A stretch of DNA of 64,000 nucleotides. It comes from an uncultured Planctomycetales bacterium (GTDB lineage: Bacteria > Omnitrophota > Gorgyraeia > Zapsychrales > JAHFFX01). The DNA lies in the NCBI GenBank assembly GCA_964372915.1, contig CAYJRN010000001.1:36305-100304 (forward strand). The letters are read 5' to 3'. Under the pieces are notes generated by a model. The model did not search any database. It had not been told where the DNA came from and was given only the letters and a program-made list of their open reading frames with translations. The translations under genes were made by a program, and so were the position numbers. Positions within the stretch are counted from its first letter, which is position 1, and each line of letters begins with the position of its first letter. This document shows positions 30,359 through 43,327 of this stretch, piece after piece.

Positions 30359-30775
30359 ATGAGAAAAACAAACAGAAGTGGTTTTACGTTACTAGAAATC
30401 ATTGTTGTTATTATCATCGTGGGTGTTTTGGCCAGTTTGGCCTTGCCCAGATTCTTCTCAACCGTTGAATATTCTAAGGCGACGGAAGCCATGGTGTCTA
30501 TGGTGACAATCCGCCAATCCATCGAGCGATGCTATTTGATGAGAAATAGCTACGCCGCTCCTTGCAATAACTTCAACAACCTGGACGTGGAAAACCCCGG
30601 GAACTCGCCGAACAACCACTTCACTTATGCCATCGGAAGTGCTGCTGGGGCCTACACGATCACAGCCACTCGCAACACTCGTAACGGCGGTGATAACACA
30701 AGTTTGATCCAGGTCACCTTCAACGGAACCACGATCACAAAATCCGGTACGGGTACGTTTGGCGCGGTTCAGTAA
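30359..30775 (+). CDS. pilA: type IV pilin (prepilin with G|FTLLE leader cleavage motif)
   Basis: MRKTNRSG|FTLLEIIVVIIIVGVLASLALP.. Class III signal peptide with a conserved hydrophobic N-helix. Confidence 0.8.
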   Translation: MRKTNRSGFTLLEIIVVIIIVGVLASLALPRFFSTVEYSKATEAMVSMVTIRQSIERCYLMRNSYAAPCNNFNNLDVENPGNSPNNHFTYAIGSAAGAYTITATRNTRNGGDNTSLIQVTFNGTTITKSGTGTFGAVQ

Positions 30776-31175
30776 AAACGGTTTTACCTTACTGGAAGTC
30801 ATTGTCGTTATTATCATCGTTGGTGTCTTGGCCAGTTTAGCGCTGCCCAGATTCTTCTCAACCGTTGAATATTCTAAGGCAACGGAAGCCATGCAGACTC
30901 TAGGCATCGTCCGCCAATCCATCGAGCGATGCTATTTGACGACATCTACCTACGCCGCTCCTTGCGATAACTTCAACAGTCTGGACGTGGAAAACCCGAG
31001 CAACTCGCCGAACAACCACTTCACTTATGCCATCGGAAGCGCTGCTGGGACCTACGCGATCGTAGCCCTTCGCAACACTCGTGACGGCGGTGATGGCACA
31101 AGCTTGATCATGCTCACCTTCAACGGGGCCACGGTCACAAAATCCGGTACGGGGGTATTTGGCGCAGTTAAATAG
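30759..31175 (+). CDS. type IV pilin, tandem near-identical paralog (TTG start overlapping upstream pilin stop)
   Basis: (M)ARFSKNG|FTLLEVIVVIIIVGVLASLALPRFFSTVEYSKATEAM.. About 85% identical to the upstream pilin and offset by exactly 400 bp. No in-frame ATG exists before the cleavage motif. Confidence 0.65.
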   Translation: MARFSKNGFTLLEVIVVIIIVGVLASLALPRFFSTVEYSKATEAMQTLGIVRQSIERCYLTTSTYAAPCDNFNSLDVENPSNSPNNHFTYAIGSAAGTYAIVALRNTRDGGDGTSLIMLTFNGATVTKSGTGVFGAVK

Positions 31176-32483: not shown

Positions 32484-33125
32484 ATGACGATCTTTAAAAA
32501 AATAAGCCATTGGGGCGTCGGAGCCATGACGCTCACGGAACTTTTGGTCTCGGTCGTTCTGATAGGTATTGTGATGTTGGGGATGGTCTCTATCGACTAT
32601 GCCACCAAGCAATCCCAGCAAACAACCACACGCTTGGGGTTAGTGGCTATACGAACGGGTGCCATGATGCTGAATATCAGCAAAGCGCTGTCTTTAGCCA
32701 CAGGCGATAAGACTAACGTGGGAATTAAAGCTAGCGCCGCCGCCAGCCCTTTTAATGGTCCGACCGATTTATGCGTTCGGCAAGACTTGAATGGCCTAGA
32801 AACGCCCAACAACACTCCCAATGACCTGACAGATGACACGTGGCGATGTTATACAACGTTCCTTAGACAACTCTTTGCGTGTCGACTTCCTGCTGCCAAC
32901 GCTTGTGCTACTATCCTGCTTCCTAATACTAATTATGTAGGCCCTCTGTACAGCCTGACGGTGAGTGTCGTGACCAACACAACCGTCGGCACTGAAAGTT
33001 TTTATGTCGAAATAACCCTTACCAATAGATATACACCAACCGCGGCAACAGATCCTTTGAATAATCCTGATTACATTCTCCAATCCCGCGTTTATCCGGG
33101 GGCCCATAGCTGGTCAATTCCCTAA
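32484..33125 (+). CDS. minor pilin / pseudopilin (PilW/FimT-like)
   Basis: ..GA|MTLTELLVSVVLIGIVMLG.. Prepilin-type N-terminus with Met at +1 and Glu at +5. Confidence 0.45.
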   Translation: MTIFKKISHWGVGAMTLTELLVSVVLIGIVMLGMVSIDYATKQSQQTTTRLGLVAIRTGAMMLNISKALSLATGDKTNVGIKASAAASPFNGPTDLCVRQDLNGLETPNNTPNDLTDDTWRCYTTFLRQLFACRLPAANACATILLPNTNYVGPLYSLTVSVVTNTTVGTESFYVEITLTNRYTPTAATDPLNNPDYILQSRVYPGAHSWSIP

Positions 33126-33148
33126 ATAACTTTGAGCCGATTCAGCGC

Positions 33149-33180
33149 GGGCCGATAGCTCAGTTTGGGAGAGCGCCTGA
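33149..33180 (+). tRNA. 5' half of an interrupted Ala-like tRNA (acceptor 5' strand, D-arm, 5' side of anticodon stem)
   Basis: GGGCCGA-TA-GCTC-AGTTTGGGA-GAGC-G-CCTGA. Its acceptor 5' strand pairs perfectly (including G3:U70) with the 3' half at 33409-33443, not with the intact tRNA in between. Confidence 0.55.
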
Positions 33181-33262
33181 GAAAGCAAGCAGCACCAAAT
33201 TTCCTTTAAAAGACATCGCGGTATTTGGTGCCGCACTGACTCTTTCTGAAATAAATAACCTT

Positions 33263-33336
33263 GGGTCGGTAGCTCAGTTTGGGAGAGCGCCTGCTCCGCA
33301 AGCAGGAGGTCGGGGGTTCGATCCCCCCCCGATCCA
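33263..33336 (+). tRNA. complete tRNA, Ala-like (G3:U70 pair), apparent anticodon CGC
   Basis: GGGTCGG TA GCTC AGTTTGGGA GAGC G CCTGC TCCGCAA GCAGG AGGTC GGGGG TTCGATC CCCCC CCGATCC A. The cloverleaf is canonical, with an unusual C at position 33. CCA is not encoded. Confidence 0.8.
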
Positions 33337-33408
33337 TGAAATATTTTTCCAACAGAAAGATTTGGTGCAGTACTGACAACCTCCATATATTTTTTAAGGA
33401 AAGTCAGT

Positions 33409-33443
33409 GCAGGAGGTCGGGGGTTCGATCCCCCCTCGGTCCA
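33409..33443 (+). tRNA. 3' half of the interrupted Ala-like tRNA (3' anticodon stem, variable loop, T-arm, acceptor 3' strand)
   Basis: GCAGG-AGGTC-GGGGG-TTCGATC-CCCCC-TCGGTCC-A. Compensatory changes relative to the intact tRNA (C4:G69, A7:U66) match the 5' half at 33149-33180. Confidence 0.55.
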
Positions 33444-33491
33444 TTTAAGTTACCCAGAGACCCAGGAACCCAGAAACCAGTTTTTTAAAAA

Positions 33492-34232
33492 ATGCACCGT
33501 TTCTTCTGCGGACATAGTAACATCCAAAAAAACTCGTCGATTGAGCTGACCGACCCGAAAGAAATCCATCATCTCAAAAATGTTCTTCGGCTTAAAAAAG
33601 ACGACCAGGTGGTTGTCTTTAATACTGACGGAAGGGAGGCGGTCGGGAGCATTCTTTCCTTAAGTCCTCATGCGGTTCTCATCCGTGTCGATTATTTAAG
33701 GCCGTCAATTCCTCACAAAACAACCCGGGTGATTTTGGCCTGCGCCATCCCGAAAAAATCAAAATTTGAAACGATTATTGAGAAGACGACGGAATTAGGC
33801 GTGGATGAAATTATCCCACTTTTGACACAACGCACGATTGTGAATCTTAAAGGGGACCAAGCGATAAGAAAAAGCTGGCGCTACCAAACCATTGCCACCA
33901 ATGCCGCCAAACAATGTGGACGCCGCGACGTTCCTCATATTCATCCCGCGACCAAATTCTCCGATATACTCAAATCCATAGACTCCACGACCACCGGCTT
34001 TATTCCCAATCTTTCTCAAAAAGGTCAGAACATCGTTAAAGAAATACAATCGGTCCGGCAACCTAAGAAAGTCATATTCTTAATCGGCCCCGAAGGCGAT
34101 TTCACGCCGGAGGAAACCGCTGCCGCGATGAAGGTGGGCCTTATACCGGTATCGCTCGGCCCCCTGGTGCTCAAGGTGGACACCGCCGCCATTGCGGTCA
34201 TAAGTCTGGCCAATCTTTTCTTCAACCAATGA
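33492..34232 (+). CDS. rsmE: 16S rRNA (uracil1498-N3)-methyltransferase
   Basis: PUA-like N-domain followed by a SPOUT C-domain (..IFLIGPEGDFTPEE..). Confidence 0.8.
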   Translation: MHRFFCGHSNIQKNSSIELTDPKEIHHLKNVLRLKKDDQVVVFNTDGREAVGSILSLSPHAVLIRVDYLRPSIPHKTTRVILACAIPKKSKFETIIEKTTELGVDEIIPLLTQRTIVNLKGDQAIRKSWRYQTIATNAAKQCGRRDVPHIHPATKFSDILKSIDSTTTGFIPNLSQKGQNIVKEIQSVRQPKKVIFLIGPEGDFTPEETAAAMKVGLIPVSLGPLVLKVDTAAIAVISLANLFFNQ

Positions 34233-39413: not shown

Positions 39414-42041
39414 ATGACCGCCAACGAAATCAGAACAAAATTTTTGGACTTCTTTGCTTTAAAAGGCCATACGATTGTACCCAGCGCCTCGCTGGTTCCA
39501 GCGGAATCGGAAGACACAACGGTTCTGTTTACTACCGCGGGAATGCAGCAATTCAAGCGCCAATTCTTAGGACACTTGGAAGGCTACACGCGGGCTGCGT
39601 CGTGTCAGAAGTGTTTACGCACCGATGATCTGGATAAAATCGGTAAAACGCCTTATCATCACACCTTCTTTGAAATGCTCGGGAACTTTTCTTTCGGCGA
39701 TTATTTTAAAAAAGATGCTATCAAGTGGGCCTGGGAATTTTTGACCAAAGAAATGGAGCTACCAGCCGAAAAACTTTGGGTCTCGGTTTACGAAGATGAT
39801 GATGAAGCTTATAACGTTTGGCTTAAAAACATCAAAGTCCCGGCAAAAAAAATTGTAAAGTTGGGGGATAAAAGTAACTTTTGGCCGGCGGAGGCCAAAG
39901 AGAAAGGCCCCAACGGCCCATGCGGACCGTGTTCGGAAATCTTTTATGATTATGGAAAGAATAAAGAGAACCCTTGCTCAAATGAGGAATGTAATCCCGA
40001 TTGCAGCTGCGGACGGTTCTCGGAAGTCTGGAATCTTGTTTTTACACAATTCAATCGTAAAGACGGCGGCGTTTTAGAGCCATTACCGGCGAAGAATATT
40101 GACACCGGCATGGGCCTCGAGCGTCTGGCCGCGGTGGTGCAGGGAAAATATAGCAATTATGGGACAGACAATTTTACCGTCATTTTAGGTGACATCAAAG
40201 AGGCTATAAAGACAAACGGCGCCAACCTTTACGAGAGCGAATACTGTATCGTTGCCGACCATATCCGGGCAATTACTTTCGGTATTGCCGATGGGGCGGT
40301 TCCGTCTAATGAAGGCCGGGGTTATGTTATACGTAAACTCATTGTGGATATAACCGATTTGTGCGTCTTGGCTGGTGTGCAGAAGCCGATTGTTTATACC
40401 TTTGTAGATGCAGTGGTCAAAATCATGGGCAAATCTTATCCAGAAATTACGACCAAGGCCGATGAAATCAAGTGTTTGGTTAAACGTATTGAAAAAGGAT
40501 TTATAAAATTACGCCATAAACGCGTGTCGGAGCTTAAAGAACGCATCGCCAAGACCAAAGACAACGCACAAGTTTTAAGCGAGTTGTTCTTCTTATACAG
40601 GGATACGCATGGCTTGACGATTTATACCATTTCCAAAGTGGCTACGGAAACAGGGGTTTCACCTCTTATTTTAGCGGAAGCTCGTGTAATTTTTGGAAGC
40701 AAAATGGATAAGCAGAAAAACCGTTCCCGCGCCGCAAGCAAAATGACTGGTGACGTGTTTGCCAACGCGGAGCTCAATTTGAACGTGCCCAAGACCGAAT
40801 TCCTCGGCTACGATGAGAAAAATTATTCTAGCGAAGGAAAAATCCTTAAATTATTCGTCAATAATCAAGAAGTTCAAACCATCCAACACGGTGACAAGGT
40901 CAAAATAGTTCTCGATAGAACTCCATTCTATGCTGAATCCGGCGGACAGGTCGGTGACACGGGGCTGCTTACAAAGAAAGGCGGACGCATCAAGATCACG
41001 GATACTCAGAAGATCGCCGATGTGTTTATCCATACCGGATCTGTAGAGGAAGGAATCTTTAACGTGAATGACCAAGTCCTCGCGCAAATCGATGTCGAGC
41101 GACGATTGGCGATTATGCGCAACCACACGGCCACACATCTTTTGCAGGCGGCGCTGCGTCGGGTTTTGGGAACTCACGTGCAGCAGCAAGGATCACTCGT
41201 GGCGCCGGACCGGCTGCGTTTTGATTTCACGCATCATCAAGCCGTGAGCAAAGAGCAATTGCGGGAGATCGAGTCGATCATCAACAATCAAATCAAAGCC
41301 GGTCATCAAGTGGATAAAAAAATCATGGACCTCAAAGCAGCCAAAGAAAGCGGGGCCACGGCTTTTTTCGCCGAAAAATACAAAGACGTCGTACGGGTCG
41401 TTTCCATCGGTGATTACTCAAAAGAATTATGCGGTGGGACACACTTAAAATCCACCGACCAGATCGGTCAATTGAAAATAGCCGGCGAAGGTGCCGTCGC
41501 TCAAGGGATCCGCCGTATTGAAGCGCGAACCGAAACCGGAGCGCGTGAATTCATCCGTGAACGAGAAAAACAAGAAGCCGGGCGCATCGAATCTGAGACC
41601 AAACGTCTACAAGAATTAGAAAAGAAAAGGGAGGGGGATCGCAAGACTTTTGAAACTTTCAAAAGTTCACTAGAGAAAATCATTAAAGACGCCGACACAA
41701 TTCATAATACAAAAGTCATCACCTATACCTTTACGAATTCGGATGCCAACCAGCTAAAAAAATTTTCTGATTTGATCAAACAACAGGTTCCATCGGTTGC
41801 GATTTGTATGGGTTCGACTTTTAACGACAGCGCGTCTGTAATAGTTGGCGTCTCTGGCGATCTCGTGGAAAAAGGAATCAGGGCGAATGAACTCATCAAG
41901 GACATTGCCCCTCTCATCAATGGCAACGGCGGCGGCCGACCGGAATTGGCGCAGGCCGGAAGCAAAGATCCCTCCAATCTCAGCTCAGCCATTGCGCAAG
42001 CCAAAAAAATCTTGCTGACTTCTCTAAAAAATTTGAAGTAG
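39414..42041 (+). CDS. alaS: alanine--tRNA ligase
   Basis: 875 aa with class II motifs, the HxxxH..CGGTH editing-domain motif and a C-terminal DHHA1 domain. Confidence 0.95.
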   Translation: MTANEIRTKFLDFFALKGHTIVPSASLVPAESEDTTVLFTTAGMQQFKRQFLGHLEGYTRAASCQKCLRTDDLDKIGKTPYHHTFFEMLGNFSFGDYFKKDAIKWAWEFLTKEMELPAEKLWVSVYEDDDEAYNVWLKNIKVPAKKIVKLGDKSNFWPAEAKEKGPNGPCGPCSEIFYDYGKNKENPCSNEECNPDCSCGRFSEVWNLVFTQFNRKDGGVLEPLPAKNIDTGMGLERLAAVVQGKYSNYGTDNFTVILGDIKEAIKTNGANLYESEYCIVADHIRAITFGIADGAVPSNEGRGYVIRKLIVDITDLCVLAGVQKPIVYTFVDAVVKIMGKSYPEITTKADEIKCLVKRIEKGFIKLRHKRVSELKERIAKTKDNAQVLSELFFLYRDTHGLTIYTISKVATETGVSPLILAEARVIFGSKMDKQKNRSRAASKMTGDVFANAELNLNVPKTEFLGYDEKNYSSEGKILKLFVNNQEVQTIQHGDKVKIVLDRTPFYAESGGQVGDTGLLTKKGGRIKITDTQKIADVFIHTGSVEEGIFNVNDQVLAQIDVERRLAIMRNHTATHLLQAALRRVLGTHVQQQGSLVAPDRLRFDFTHHQAVSKEQLREIESIINNQIKAGHQVDKKIMDLKAAKESGATAFFAEKYKDVVRVVSIGDYSKELCGGTHLKSTDQIGQLKIAGEGAVAQGIRRIEARTETGAREFIREREKQEAGRIESETKRLQELEKKREGDRKTFETFKSSLEKIIKDADTIHNTKVITYTFTNSDANQLKKFSDLIKQQVPSVAICMGSTFNDSASVIVGVSGDLVEKGIRANELIKDIAPLINGNGGGRPELAQAGSKDPSNLSSAIAQAKKILLTSLKNLK

Positions 42042-42052
42042 CCAGCACTGCC

Positions 42053-43327
42053 TTGCGCTTTGCGAAAGGCTGTAAAGAAAGCACTCTCAAAATGAAAATC
42101 CTCAAGCAAGGCGGCAAGGGAATCGAAAAACTTTTTGACCGCAACCTCTACGCGCGCAAAAAGCACGTCGAGGAGAAAGTGCGCCGTATCATCGATGAGG
42201 TCCGAATAAAAGGCGACGAGGGGGTCCTTAAGTACACCCAAAAATTCGATAAGGTCAAACTCACGACCAAAATGATCCGTGTCGATGAGAGTGAGATCAG
42301 CGGCGCCTTCCAGAATATCACCAGCGATTTTGTGACGACGCTTAAAGTCATCATCAACAACGTCGAGGTTTTTTATAAGAAACAATTAAAGAAACCGGCG
42401 CAAGTGAAAGACACGGAAGGCATCGTCCTTAAGGAAAACTTTTTATCGCTGGAATCGGTGGGCATTTACGTCCCGGCGGGAACGGCGCCCTTGGTTTCCT
42501 CCGTCTATATGACCGTCATCCCGGCCAAGGTTGCCGGGGTCAAAAGAATTGCCATCGCTACCCCGCCGGACAAGGAGGGGCGTATCAACCCGTATATCCT
42601 GGCGGTCGCGAACCTCCTCAAGGTCAACGAAATTTATAAGATGGGTGGGGCCCAGGCCATTGCGGCGCTGGCCCTGGGAACAAAAACCGTTCCCAGGGTG
42701 GACAAAATCATCGGCCCCGGTAATATGTACGTGACCGAAGCCAAGCGCCAGCTCTTCGGCTATGTTGATATCGATATGCTCGCCGGCCCGACGGAATTGG
42801 TCATCATCGCCAATCGCGCCAGCGATCCGGAATACGTCATTGCCGATCTTGAGGCGCAAATGGAACACATTGGAGGACTTTCGATTTTGGTCACACCCTC
42901 GAGACAACTCATCCGACAAGTGAAGAAGAGAGTTTCGAACGGCTTTGGTATTCTCGTCAAGAACATGGATGAGGCGGTCGCCGTTGTCAATCGCATCGCG
43001 CCGGAACACTTGCAGATTTTGACCAACAATCCTTTAAGCATCGCCAAAAGAATCGTCAATGCCGGTGCCGTCTTTTTAGGGCCTTACAGCCCGACGGCCG
43101 TTGGCGATTACGTGGCCGGACCCAGTCACGTTCTGCCGACCTTGGGAACCGCGCGATTCTTTTCAGGGTTATGTTTGTCGGACTTCATGAAGACGAGTCA
43201 CATCATTTCGTATTCCAAAAAAGCGCTCGAGAAGGTACGCGAGCCTTTGGAAAAAATCGCGAGTATAGAAGGATTACCCAAGCACTCTCAATCCGTCATC
43301 GTACGTTTCAATGGAAAGGATGAATAG
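42053..43327 (+). CDS. hisD: histidinol dehydrogenase
   Basis: ..GPYSPTAVGDYVAGPSHVLPT.. signature. The start may be the internal MKILKQ at 42092. Confidence 0.9.
   Translation: MRFAKGCKESTLKMKILKQGGKGIEKLFDRNLYARKKHVEEKVRRIIDEVRIKGDEGVLKYTQKFDKVKLTTKMIRVDESEISGAFQNITSDFVTTLKVIINNVEVFYKKQLKKPAQVKDTEGIVLKENFLSLESVGIYVPAGTAPLVSSVYMTVIPAKVAGVKRIAIATPPDKEGRINPYILAVANLLKVNEIYKMGGAQAIAALALGTKTVPRVDKIIGPGNMYVTEAKRQLFGYVDIDMLAGPTELVIIANRASDPEYVIADLEAQMEHIGGLSILVTPSRQLIRQVKKRVSNGFGILVKNMDEAVAVVNRIAPEHLQILTNNPLSIAKRIVNAGAVFLGPYSPTAVGDYVAGPSHVLPTLGTARFFSGLCLSDFMKTSHIISYSKKALEKVREPLEKIASIEGLPKHSQSVIVRFNGKDE

Follow-up and report, generated by a model that had tools for sequence, protein, structure and literature searches.

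A probable miniature mobile element with a tRNA-Ala(CGC) gene at its centre interrupts the resident tRNA-Ala(CGC) gene of an Omnitrophota bacterium

We analyzed a 64,000-nt stretch of contig CAYJRN010000001.1, from an uncultured bacterium of the Omnitrophota. This whole stretch is called the window, and all coordinates are window positions unless stated otherwise; L numbers denote the contigs and loci that we compared. Between a pseudopilin gene and rsmE, the window holds a tRNA-Ala(CGC) gene that is cut in two by a 217-nt insert, and the insert contains a second, complete tRNA-Ala(CGC) gene. The gene rsmE is encoded 48 nt downstream of this structure. We distinguish an outer element (E1) and an element nested within it (E2). 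The parts follow each other in this order:

33123-33133, forward strand: resident 5' flank TAAATAACTTT, which starts at the stop codon of the pseudopilin open reading frame (ORF) 32484-33125 and matches the 5' flank of the inner tRNA, TAAATAACCTT (0 chance matches expected).

33134-33145, forward strand: a third, degenerate tRNA 5' fragment, GAGCCGATTCAG, read from the sequence as tRNA positions 1-15 minus AGC and with G2A, ending in CAG.

33146-33148: CGC, between the degenerate fragment and the outer tRNA.

33149-33179, forward strand: positions 1-30 of the outer (resident) tRNA-Ala(CGC), with the acceptor 5' strand, the D arm and the 5' strand of the anticodon stem; 31/31 identical to the tRNAs of L016 and L045.

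33180-33184, forward strand: an AGAAA patch in place of CTCC (outer tRNA positions 31-34); the anticodon loop is destroyed.

33185-33192, forward strand: outer tRNA positions 35-42, GCAAGCAG; the final CAG (33190-33192) is the left copy of the putative 3-nt target duplication.

33193-33409: the insert, 217 nt (E1, nested E2 and tRNA).

33193-33230, unstranded: left arm of E1, a terminal hairpin with tip CACCAAA, loop TTTCCTTTAAAAGACATCGCGGTA and complement TTTGGTG; aligned to L045 460-497, with covariation, and scored at 64 bits by covariance model R1.

33231-33233, unstranded: CCG, left copy of the putative 3-nt duplication around E2 (CAG in L045).

33234-33248, unstranded: left end of E2, CACTGACTCTTTCTG, a 12/15 inverted repeat with 33353-33367 that includes an 8-bp inverted repeat noted earlier.

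33249-33262, forward strand: 5' flank of the cargo, AAATAAATAACCTT, 14 nt.

33263-33336, forward strand: intact inner tRNA-Ala(CGC) with G3:U70, A73 and C33, CCA not encoded (ARAGORN; Rfam RF00005, 62.8 bits, E 3e-11); presumed functional.

33337-33352, forward strand: 3' flank of the cargo, TGAAATATTTTTCCAA, 16 nt, forming a small hairpin with the start of the E2 right end.

33353-33367, unstranded: right end of E2, CAGAAAGATTTGGTG.

33368-33370, unstranded: CAG, right copy of the putative E2 duplication and originally, it appears, the central triplet of E1.

33371-33409, unstranded: right arm of E1, a terminal hairpin with TACTGAC, loop AACCTCCATATATTTTTTAAGGAAA and tip GTCAGTG; aligned to L045 532-569 and scored at 73.5 bits by model R1.

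33410-33412, forward strand: CAG, right copy of the putative target duplication (tRNA positions 40-42).

33413-33443, forward strand: outer tRNA positions 43-73, with the variable loop, the T arm, the acceptor 3' strand TCGGTCC and A73; identical to the tRNAs of L016 and L045.

The two outer pieces are the resident tRNA gene of this locus, now interrupted. When the outer 5' part, CTCCGCAA and the outer 3' part are joined, they are identical at 74 of 74 positions to the uninterrupted tRNA-Ala(CGC) of L016 (JAHFFX010000001), a match beyond chance. This tRNA lies at a syntenic pilin-tRNA-rsmE locus, and its neighbouring pilin has the same C-terminus as the window pilin. The uninterrupted form of the outer tRNA, corresponding to the empty allele, is GCGCCTGCTCCGCAAGCAGGAGGTC. 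An earlier sequence-only reading of the window had proposed that the outer pieces form one interrupted gene and not two decayed duplicates, and had asked for an uninterrupted version in related genomes. Both points hold. The order pseudopilin, tRNA-Ala(CGC), rsmE is conserved in Omnitrophota, and a single uninterrupted tRNA-Ala(CGC) lies just upstream of rsmE in 19 of 39 loci from this phylum. The window RsmE matches Candidatus Omnitrophota genomes only, with at most 52% identity in a species-representative collection and at most 55% in a large protein collection. Because the next best RsmE is only 55% identical, these comparisons of the locus are not between near neighbours.

The outer parts are undecayed (66/66 against L016), and their acceptor strands GGGCCGA and TCGGTCC pair perfectly, including G3:U70, as the sequence-only reading had seen. 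That reading had placed a 5' half at 33149-33180 and a 3' half at 33409-33443. Both pieces are present, but their borders shift: position 33180 is not tRNA, since the first piece ends at 33179 and tRNA sequence resumes at 33185-33192, and G33409 is the last base of the element, with tRNA sequence beginning at the CAG in 33410-33412. The true insertion comprises 33193-33412, made up of the 217-nt element and three duplicated bases. The outer tRNA lacks only CTCC (positions 31-34), with AGAAA in its place. Being split and damaged in the anticodon loop, the outer gene is presumably dead.

The nested structure is real DNA and not a product of the assembly. Identical sequence occurs in Logan contigs from five sequencing runs, and one of these contigs (L047, run ERR4904391) covers the full distance between the pilin genes and rsmE, the entire structure included, with 0 mismatches. 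The exact repeats shared by the inner and outer tRNAs, read from the sequence, are only 24 and 27 nt, so each junction is carried by unique sequence. Other Logan contigs (L001-L003, L048 and L049) break off at the borders of the tRNA copies (33150, 33264 and 33409; ends 33292 and 33309). The structure is usually fragmented in public short-read assemblies, and similar cases may be under-reported.

We presume that the inner tRNA is the working copy. ARAGORN and Rfam RF00005 score it alone and not the outer gene, and its RF00005 score of 62.8 bits (gathering score 29) is the same as that of the intact tRNA of L045 (62.9 bits). The alanine identity features G3:U70 and A73 can be read from its sequence. 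It is identical to the resident gene over positions 8-65 and differs only at 4:69 and 7:66, both compensatory (GGGTCGG/CCGATCC), in agreement with the sequence-only reading. Given these two compensatory differences in the inner gene and the lack of decay in the outer halves, the two tRNAs probably diverged as working genes before a recent nesting. The anticodon loop at 33295-33301, UCCGCAA, has C33 instead of the near-universal U33, together with C31:G39. This C33 had been singled out as unusual; it is present, but it is no oddity of this gene. The UCCGCAA form occurs in at least 8 Omnitrophota loci (the window, L005, L011, L014, L016, L021, L037 and L045), and UUCGCAA with G31:U39 in at least 13 others; C33 is a conserved lineage trait and no defect of the window gene. 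A sigma-70 promoter scan around the window structure gave no site.

A homologous element lies at a different tRNA position in L045 (Ga0066710_100678155), a single contig found by one metagenome scan with the tRNA core. It comes from another species, because its RsmE is only 49% identical to that of the window. In L045, a promoter-like TTGTCA-17-TATGAT precedes GGGCCGATAGCTCAG, the insert of 110 nt and CAGTTTGGGAGAGCGCCTGCTCCGCAAGCAG; after a spacer of 55 nt come an intact tRNA-Ala(CGC) and then rsmE. When the central 104 nt are removed, window positions 33193-33248 plus 33353-33409 align end to end with L045 460-569 at 90 of 110 positions (82%). In both genomes the element follows a CAG: at tRNA positions 13-15, in the D loop of a 5' fragment, in L045, and at positions 40-42, in the anticodon stem, in the window. 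Taking out the element together with one CAG gives back the tRNA sequence exactly in both, with L016 or the intact L045 copy as the reference; this is the classical empty-site test for an insertion of transposon type that duplicates 3 nt of its target. We read the CAG/CAG pairs as 3-nt target duplications in both genomes, and the element appears to have inserted into tRNA-Ala(CGC) sequence at least twice independently. The GAAAG..GCAG motif that the two window junctions had been said to share is not a common motif: on the left it is tRNA positions 35-42 behind AGAAA, on the right the element end GGAAAGTCAGTG followed by the duplicated CAG. Within the L045 element, at 492-519 of that contig, there is also a promoter-like TTGGTA-16-TAGAAT directed towards the intact tRNA; the corresponding window sequence is a poor match.

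The element has no coding capacity. Together, E1 and E2 measure 217 nt in the window (113 nt without the cargo) and 110 nt in L045, and no ORF is possible. In both copies the terminal inverted repeats (TIRs) match at 15 of 20 positions, and at most 1 of 20000 shuffles was as good. The GC content is 0.41 in the window copy and 0.38 in the L045 copy, compared with 0.475 for the whole window. Folded as DNA, the L045 copy forms one long hairpin (z -4.8); the window core gives z -2.7.

E1 is built from two stem-loop units in inverted orientation with a CAG in the middle (unit(a), CAG, inverted unit(c)) and measures 80 nt in the window and 79 nt in L045. In each half-unit, a tip of 7 nt is followed by a loop of some 25 nt (TTTCCTTAAAA...GAGGT) and by the tip's complement; then come CNG and the tip of the other half with half of the central palindrome. 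The tips are CACCAAA, CACTGAC, CCCTGAC, TACTGAC and CGCCGAC. Across six half-units, the 7-bp stem between the tip and its internal complement shows compensatory double changes in 5 of 7 pairs, with 93% of the cells paired; when the partner columns were slid as a control, this fell to 12-52%.

The internal repeats are probably the result of nesting, with E2, a smaller member of the family, sitting inverted at the central CAG of E1 with a 3-nt duplication. The ends of E2 are the tips of E1 in inverted order. In L045, E2 has a length of 28 nt (two ends and nothing more) and CAG/CAG as its flanks. The window E2 measures 134 nt, with CACTGACTCTTTCTG and CAGAAAGATTTGGTG around 104 nt that include the tRNA, and has CCG/CAG as its flanks; its ends CACTGACTCTTTCTG and CACCAAATCTTTCTG match at 12 of 15 positions. 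Nesting accounts for two repeats that the sequence-only reading had reported and that are indeed there. The 8-bp inverted repeat (33241-33248 and 33353-33360) belongs to the E2 ends, and the 18-nt direct repeat at 33223 and 33360 (TTTGGTGC..ACTGAC) is E1 stem plus duplication plus E2 tip. We had also considered the 18-nt repeat as an 18-bp target duplication and dropped this in favour of nesting, which explains it better. Two other candidates were rejected: an integron attC site, since the core AAC...GTT fits L045 and not the window, and an IS200/IS605-type insertion sequence (IS), since the ends of such elements are not inverted repeats of each other, as they are here.

We therefore considered what kind of sequence the insert is. 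In our assessment it is probably a small, non-autonomous, palindromic mobile element of the MITE (miniature inverted-repeat transposable element) or REPIN kind, and not an intron. Of the three options left by the sequence-only reading, a small tRNA-carrying insertion element is favoured by the second copy in L045, the 3-nt duplications and the inverted ends.

A functional interrupted gene would be one alternative: a 228-nt intron, either group I-like or spliced by an endonuclease and a ligase, or two halves that act as a split tRNA once the inner tRNA has been removed. The undecayed outer halves and their perfectly paired acceptor strands would fit such a gene, the region as a whole gives a good fold that includes the outer acceptor stem (z -4.5), and bacterial group I tRNA introns, like archaeal split and intron-containing tRNAs, also interrupt the tRNA near the anticodon arm. 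Nevertheless, we regard it as extremely improbable. A permissive Rfam scan of 32900-33700 (E up to 10), the check that had been proposed, gave no intron or ribozyme family, and RF00005 scored the inner tRNA alone. ARAGORN with introns allowed (-i) called the inner tRNA only, and no separate bulge-helix-bulge search was made. With the insert and one CAG removed in silico, a 75-nt cloverleaf is left whose loop, AGAAAGCAA, has no valid anticodon (ARAGORN reports 'tRNA-???'), and other cut points give no tRNA. Because CTCC (positions 31-34) has been lost, no excision can restore the resident tRNA; the exons cannot be joined into a valid one. The break falls at 42/43, which is in the anticodon stem and outside the loop; in L045 the same element occupies the D loop of a truncated tRNA fragment; and the interruption is not conserved, L016 being uninterrupted. 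The tRNA-intron option of the earlier reading is therefore abandoned.

The locus might also be an ordinary, decayed tandem array of tRNA-Ala genes with no mobile element, in which the 3' part is missing from the first of three copies and the 5' part from the last. Partial duplications of a tRNA 5' part and its flank do exist: the degenerate fragment (F0, 33134-33145) with its flank repeat in the window, and a fragment of positions 1-42 upstream of the intact gene in L045. However, the outer parts in the window are exactly complementary (positions 1-42 and 40-73, with a 3-nt overlap), they are undecayed at 66 of 66 positions, and they share an acceptor-stem type unlike that of the inner gene. 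Moreover, the spacers are no tRNA flanks but the arms, left and right, of an element that is intact in L045. We consider the array highly improbable.

Integration classically targets tRNA genes, their anticodon-loop region included, and elements that integrate there bring tRNA sequence that restores the gene. The insert could accordingly be read as the remnant of an integrative element with a tyrosine integrase and an att site in the tRNA, reduced by the loss of nearly all its content. The outcome is alike, in that the insertion is harmless since a working tRNA is kept. In such elements, however, only the displaced part is supplied and a hybrid gene is formed through a long att site, whereas here the restored copy is a whole, independent, central gene and not a junction hybrid. 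The junction repeat is 3 nt and not an att core of tens of bases (more than about 15 bp would be expected), the ends are inverted repeats, there is no integrase ORF, and the neighbours are pilin and rsmE, as in the uninterrupted relatives. This explanation is scarcely credible.

Distant relatives of the element were found at other tRNA-Ala(CGC)-rsmE loci. L013 and L017 have a two-hairpin module without nested E2, right behind a promoter -10 box and about 75 nt upstream of tRNA-Ala(CGC); the window right arm is about 70% identical to it. The first-round covariance model (R1) gave four weak matches outside its training set, in L009, L011, L008 and at window 42013-42065 (E 0.17-0.78). Again outside the training set, the second-round model (R2) matched the remaining half of the L009 element (21.8 bits, E 0.068) and, in L005, the orthologue of what had matched in L011 (E 0.009). 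The E-values that these models give are approximate, and weak matches are leads and not proof. The L009 element, with both halves present, has the tRNA on one side and rsmE on the other. Its left tip, CGCCGAC, adjoins GTTCGCAATCAG, a tRNA-Ala fragment of 12 nt (positions 31-42) whose last triplet, up to position 42, is CAG. The left tip thus abuts a tRNA-Ala CAG in three lineages, those of the window, L045 and L009. The family may prefer the tRNA-Ala(CGC)-rsmE locus or have long been resident there.

Some further observations concern these loci. In L009 the intact tRNA-Ala (632-704 of that contig) has CAA at both target positions (13-15 and 40-42, the latter with a compensating stem change), while the fragment beside the element keeps CAG; this could be chance or a loss of the target site. 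The weak solo unit at window 42013-42065 (UGCUGAC-loop-GCCAGCA; R1 18 bits, E 0.05-0.17) lies at the 3' end of ORF 39414-42041 and, if real, would be the only sign in the window of a copy away from the tRNA locus. In several other Omnitrophota, the tRNA-Ala(CGC)-rsmE spacer is full of strong palindromes (L011 2382-2445, L005 2393-2470, L014 2400-2480, L021 1206-1327 and L018 1377-1518; z -3 to -6), and those of L011 and L005 are laid out like the window right arm, with a small palindrome, 3 nt and a hairpin. Searches with the spacers and element ends (pattern search, blastn-short and nhmmer) found no further copies in the window or in 41 rsmE loci beyond the locus itself. Four more rsmE loci reached through homologues (among L050-L055) had an ordinary tRNA or none, and no element.

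This distribution bears on the most serious alternative, that the module is no transposon but a long-resident, structured part of the tRNA-Ala(CGC)-rsmE transcription unit (for example, a structure that bears a promoter, a site of processing, or RNA of a leader or spacer), and that the tRNA fragments arose locally, by illegitimate recombination and duplication at short CAG microhomologies. Relatives lie within about 200 nt of tRNA-Ala(CGC), at variable positions, in the window, L045, L013, L017, L009, L011 and L005, and elsewhere in the roughly 270 kb searched there were two weak matches only. Compensatory changes keep the stems, as they would in a functional RNA, the L045 copy has its promoter-like TTGGTA-16-TAGAAT facing the tRNA, and L011, L005 and L014 share the layout of tRNA, small palindrome and hairpin seen downstream of the inner tRNA in the window. 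On the other hand, the element occupies two tRNA positions in two genomes, and its removal together with exactly 3 nt restores the tRNA, which is the mark of an insertion and not of joining at microhomologies. Nesting of one member within another comes with the same 3-nt duplication. The two copies are 82% identical while the RsmE proteins are 49% identical, which vertical descent of a neutral spacer does not predict, and there is no match to an Rfam family. On balance we judge a resident module rather improbable.

Under the mobile-element reading, E1 would have entered the resident tRNA-Ala(CGC) within its anticodon stem, behind the CAG at positions 40-42, duplicating 3 bases. E2, from the same family, would have nested in inverted orientation at the central CAG of E1, again with a 3-nt duplication; in this genome E2 would hold a complete tRNA-Ala(CGC) with 14 and 16 nt of flank. 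The element would be moved by a transposase acting in trans. tRNAs are released from transcripts by RNase P and 3' processing enzymes, and the inner tRNA would be released in this way from a read-through transcript and take over decoding. The inverted arms could pair around the inner tRNA in a 15-bp stem (33233-33248 with 33353-33368).

How the tRNA came to lie inside E2 is a separate question. We see an even chance that it was carried in as a passenger of the element, which would fit its position exactly between intact E2 ends and the divergence of the two tRNAs as working genes. It is somewhat unlikely that the tRNA was copied into the centre of the palindrome after insertion. A local or orthologous origin is suggested by the cargo 5' flank, with its match to the resident flank, and by the cargo 3' flank and right arm, which are laid out like the region downstream of the tRNA in L011, L005 and L014. 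Both sets of clues would fit if the cargo had been captured at such a locus, in this or a related lineage, and had then moved.

Several observations weigh against a mobile element with a tRNA cargo. As to the cargo, the clues disagree: the inner 5' flank TAAATAACCTT resembles the resident flank after the pilin stop, which points to a local or orthologous origin, while the two compensatory pairs in the acceptor stem, with undecayed outer halves, point to earlier separate evolution. As to mobility, the window has one full copy, plus the weak solo unit at 42013-42065, and no transposase or autonomous partner was found in it. Scans of viral contigs with both element ends gave 0 matches, BLAST searches of plasmids and phages with the elements gave nothing meaningful, and an empty-site allele was not seen in the five sequencing runs. 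Sharp 3-nt duplications occur in two genomes only, and the E2 duplication of the window is imperfect (CCG/CAG). The L045 copy was found through a tRNA query, which introduces an ascertainment bias. All well-defined copies lie at the same tRNA-Ala-rsmE locus, and a locally rearranged resident structured element could explain this equally well. Finally, the mobile-element reading does not account for the AGAAA patch in the outer anticodon loop.

The surroundings of the structure also have features of their own. The downstream tandem repeat of 8 nt that had been reported is present and is placed at 33452-33478, between the outer 3' part and rsmE (ACCCAGAA, 3.4 units, Tandem Repeats Finder score 40). 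Each unit includes CAG, the target triplet of the element, and the last unit continues into CAGTTTTTT, which is similar to the tRNA sequence CAGTTTGGG; the repeat may be a scar of activity at CAG sites. On the other side, the resident flank and the degenerate fragment repeat the flank and start of the inner gene (TAAATAACYTTGRGYCG; chance would give 0 matches). Within the pilin ORF (33097-33111), 15 nt match the 5' end of the tRNA, which was set aside as probably due to chance; this stretch encodes a conserved C-terminus (YPG.HSW.IP) in common with L016. Further upstream, two adjacent, near-identical genes for 138-aa pseudopilins (30359-30775 and 30759-31175, together 30359-31175) lie within a cluster resembling type IV pilus or type II secretion systems, with a secretin, an ATPase, a platform protein and several N-methyl pilins. 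The window is unusually one-directional: over positions 1-64000, all 44 of 44 plausible ORFs of at least 200 aa are on the forward strand, and two reverse-strand ORFs lie inside larger forward-strand ORFs.

Among known systems, the element is most readily compared with prokaryotic MITEs, which are described as shorter than about 500 bp, without a transposase, with TIRs of about 4-30 bp and a target duplication, AT-rich and with stable stem-loops (PMC10969869). The window element is like MITEs such as Correia, Chunjie and QMITE in size, TIRs, duplication, lack of a transposase, AT-richness and stem-loop fold, each of which we tested (PMC10969869). It also resembles them in its ability to disrupt genes; Chunjie-1, for instance, disrupts a phosphate uptake operon (PMC10969869). 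It differs in its site inside a tRNA gene, in the complete tRNA gene at its centre and in the hairpin at each end that is maintained by covariation. MITEs are expected in several copies per genome at unrelated sites; here there is one full copy and one weak solo unit (E 0.05-0.17) in 64 kb, the others being in other species at the same locus. They are also expected to share their ends with a related autonomous IS able to move them in trans, and none was found in the window. Neither tRNA nor passenger nor cargo comes up in a 2024 review of prokaryotic MITEs (PMC10969869), and our literature searches for a MITE or a mobile insertion cassette (MIC) with a tRNA passenger found none.

MICs of the MIC231 type have two inverted repeats, no transposase and a passenger gene, and are moved in trans by a related IS (PMC6199540). 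E2 is alike in having inverted ends that flank a passenger without a transposase. MICs, however, are 0.7-3 kb long and have protein-coding passengers, whereas the E2 unit is 134 nt long, carries a tRNA and has no known IS. REPINs, the high-copy doublets of repetitive extragenic palindromic (REP) sequences moved by RAYT transposases, are similar in that they consist of two inverted stem-loops with a short spacer, about 80-110 nt in all, with the whole element forming one hairpin and the stems kept by compensatory change (PMC3116915, PMC3337134). The window element differs from REPINs in lacking a GTAG or CGTC head (PMC3733652), in being flanked by a 3-nt duplication and in lying within a gene and not between genes.

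As to the enzyme, transposons of the IS5/PIF-Harbinger (PHIS) superfamily, with a DDE transposase, make 3-bp duplications, including 5'-CWG-3' in the NuwaI group (PMC4482050). The CWG-type 3-nt duplication (here CAG) and the TIRs are alike and would point to an enzyme of this type, and the terminal hairpins would suit an enzyme that reads structure; NuwaI is eukaryotic, and both points are leads only as to the enzyme class.

The finding also carries a warning for annotation, as tRNA finders report one normal tRNA here and overlook the disrupted resident gene, and short-read assemblies break at this place. If the mobile-element reading is right, the window holds a miniature non-autonomous element with a tRNA passenger inside the cognate tRNA gene, and we found no description of such a MITE or MIC. 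A more far-reaching version, which we regard as tentative and unlikely overall, is that a palindromic family of about 80 nt homes to CAG of tRNA-Ala(CGC), and that one of its lineages, equipped with a spare tRNA, replaces the gene that it destroys. This would be a "self-compensating" transposon and, at 134 nt, the smallest known mobile unit with a functional gene. The mobile-element reading itself would mean that integrase att sites are not the only way for a mobile element to settle in a tRNA gene at no cost in tRNA, and that there is a second one. It would provide a concrete case of tRNA gene replacement, in which paralogues with different acceptor stems are exchanged, and it would define a new repeat family of Omnitrophota whose target triplet is clear and whose preference for a locus can be tested.

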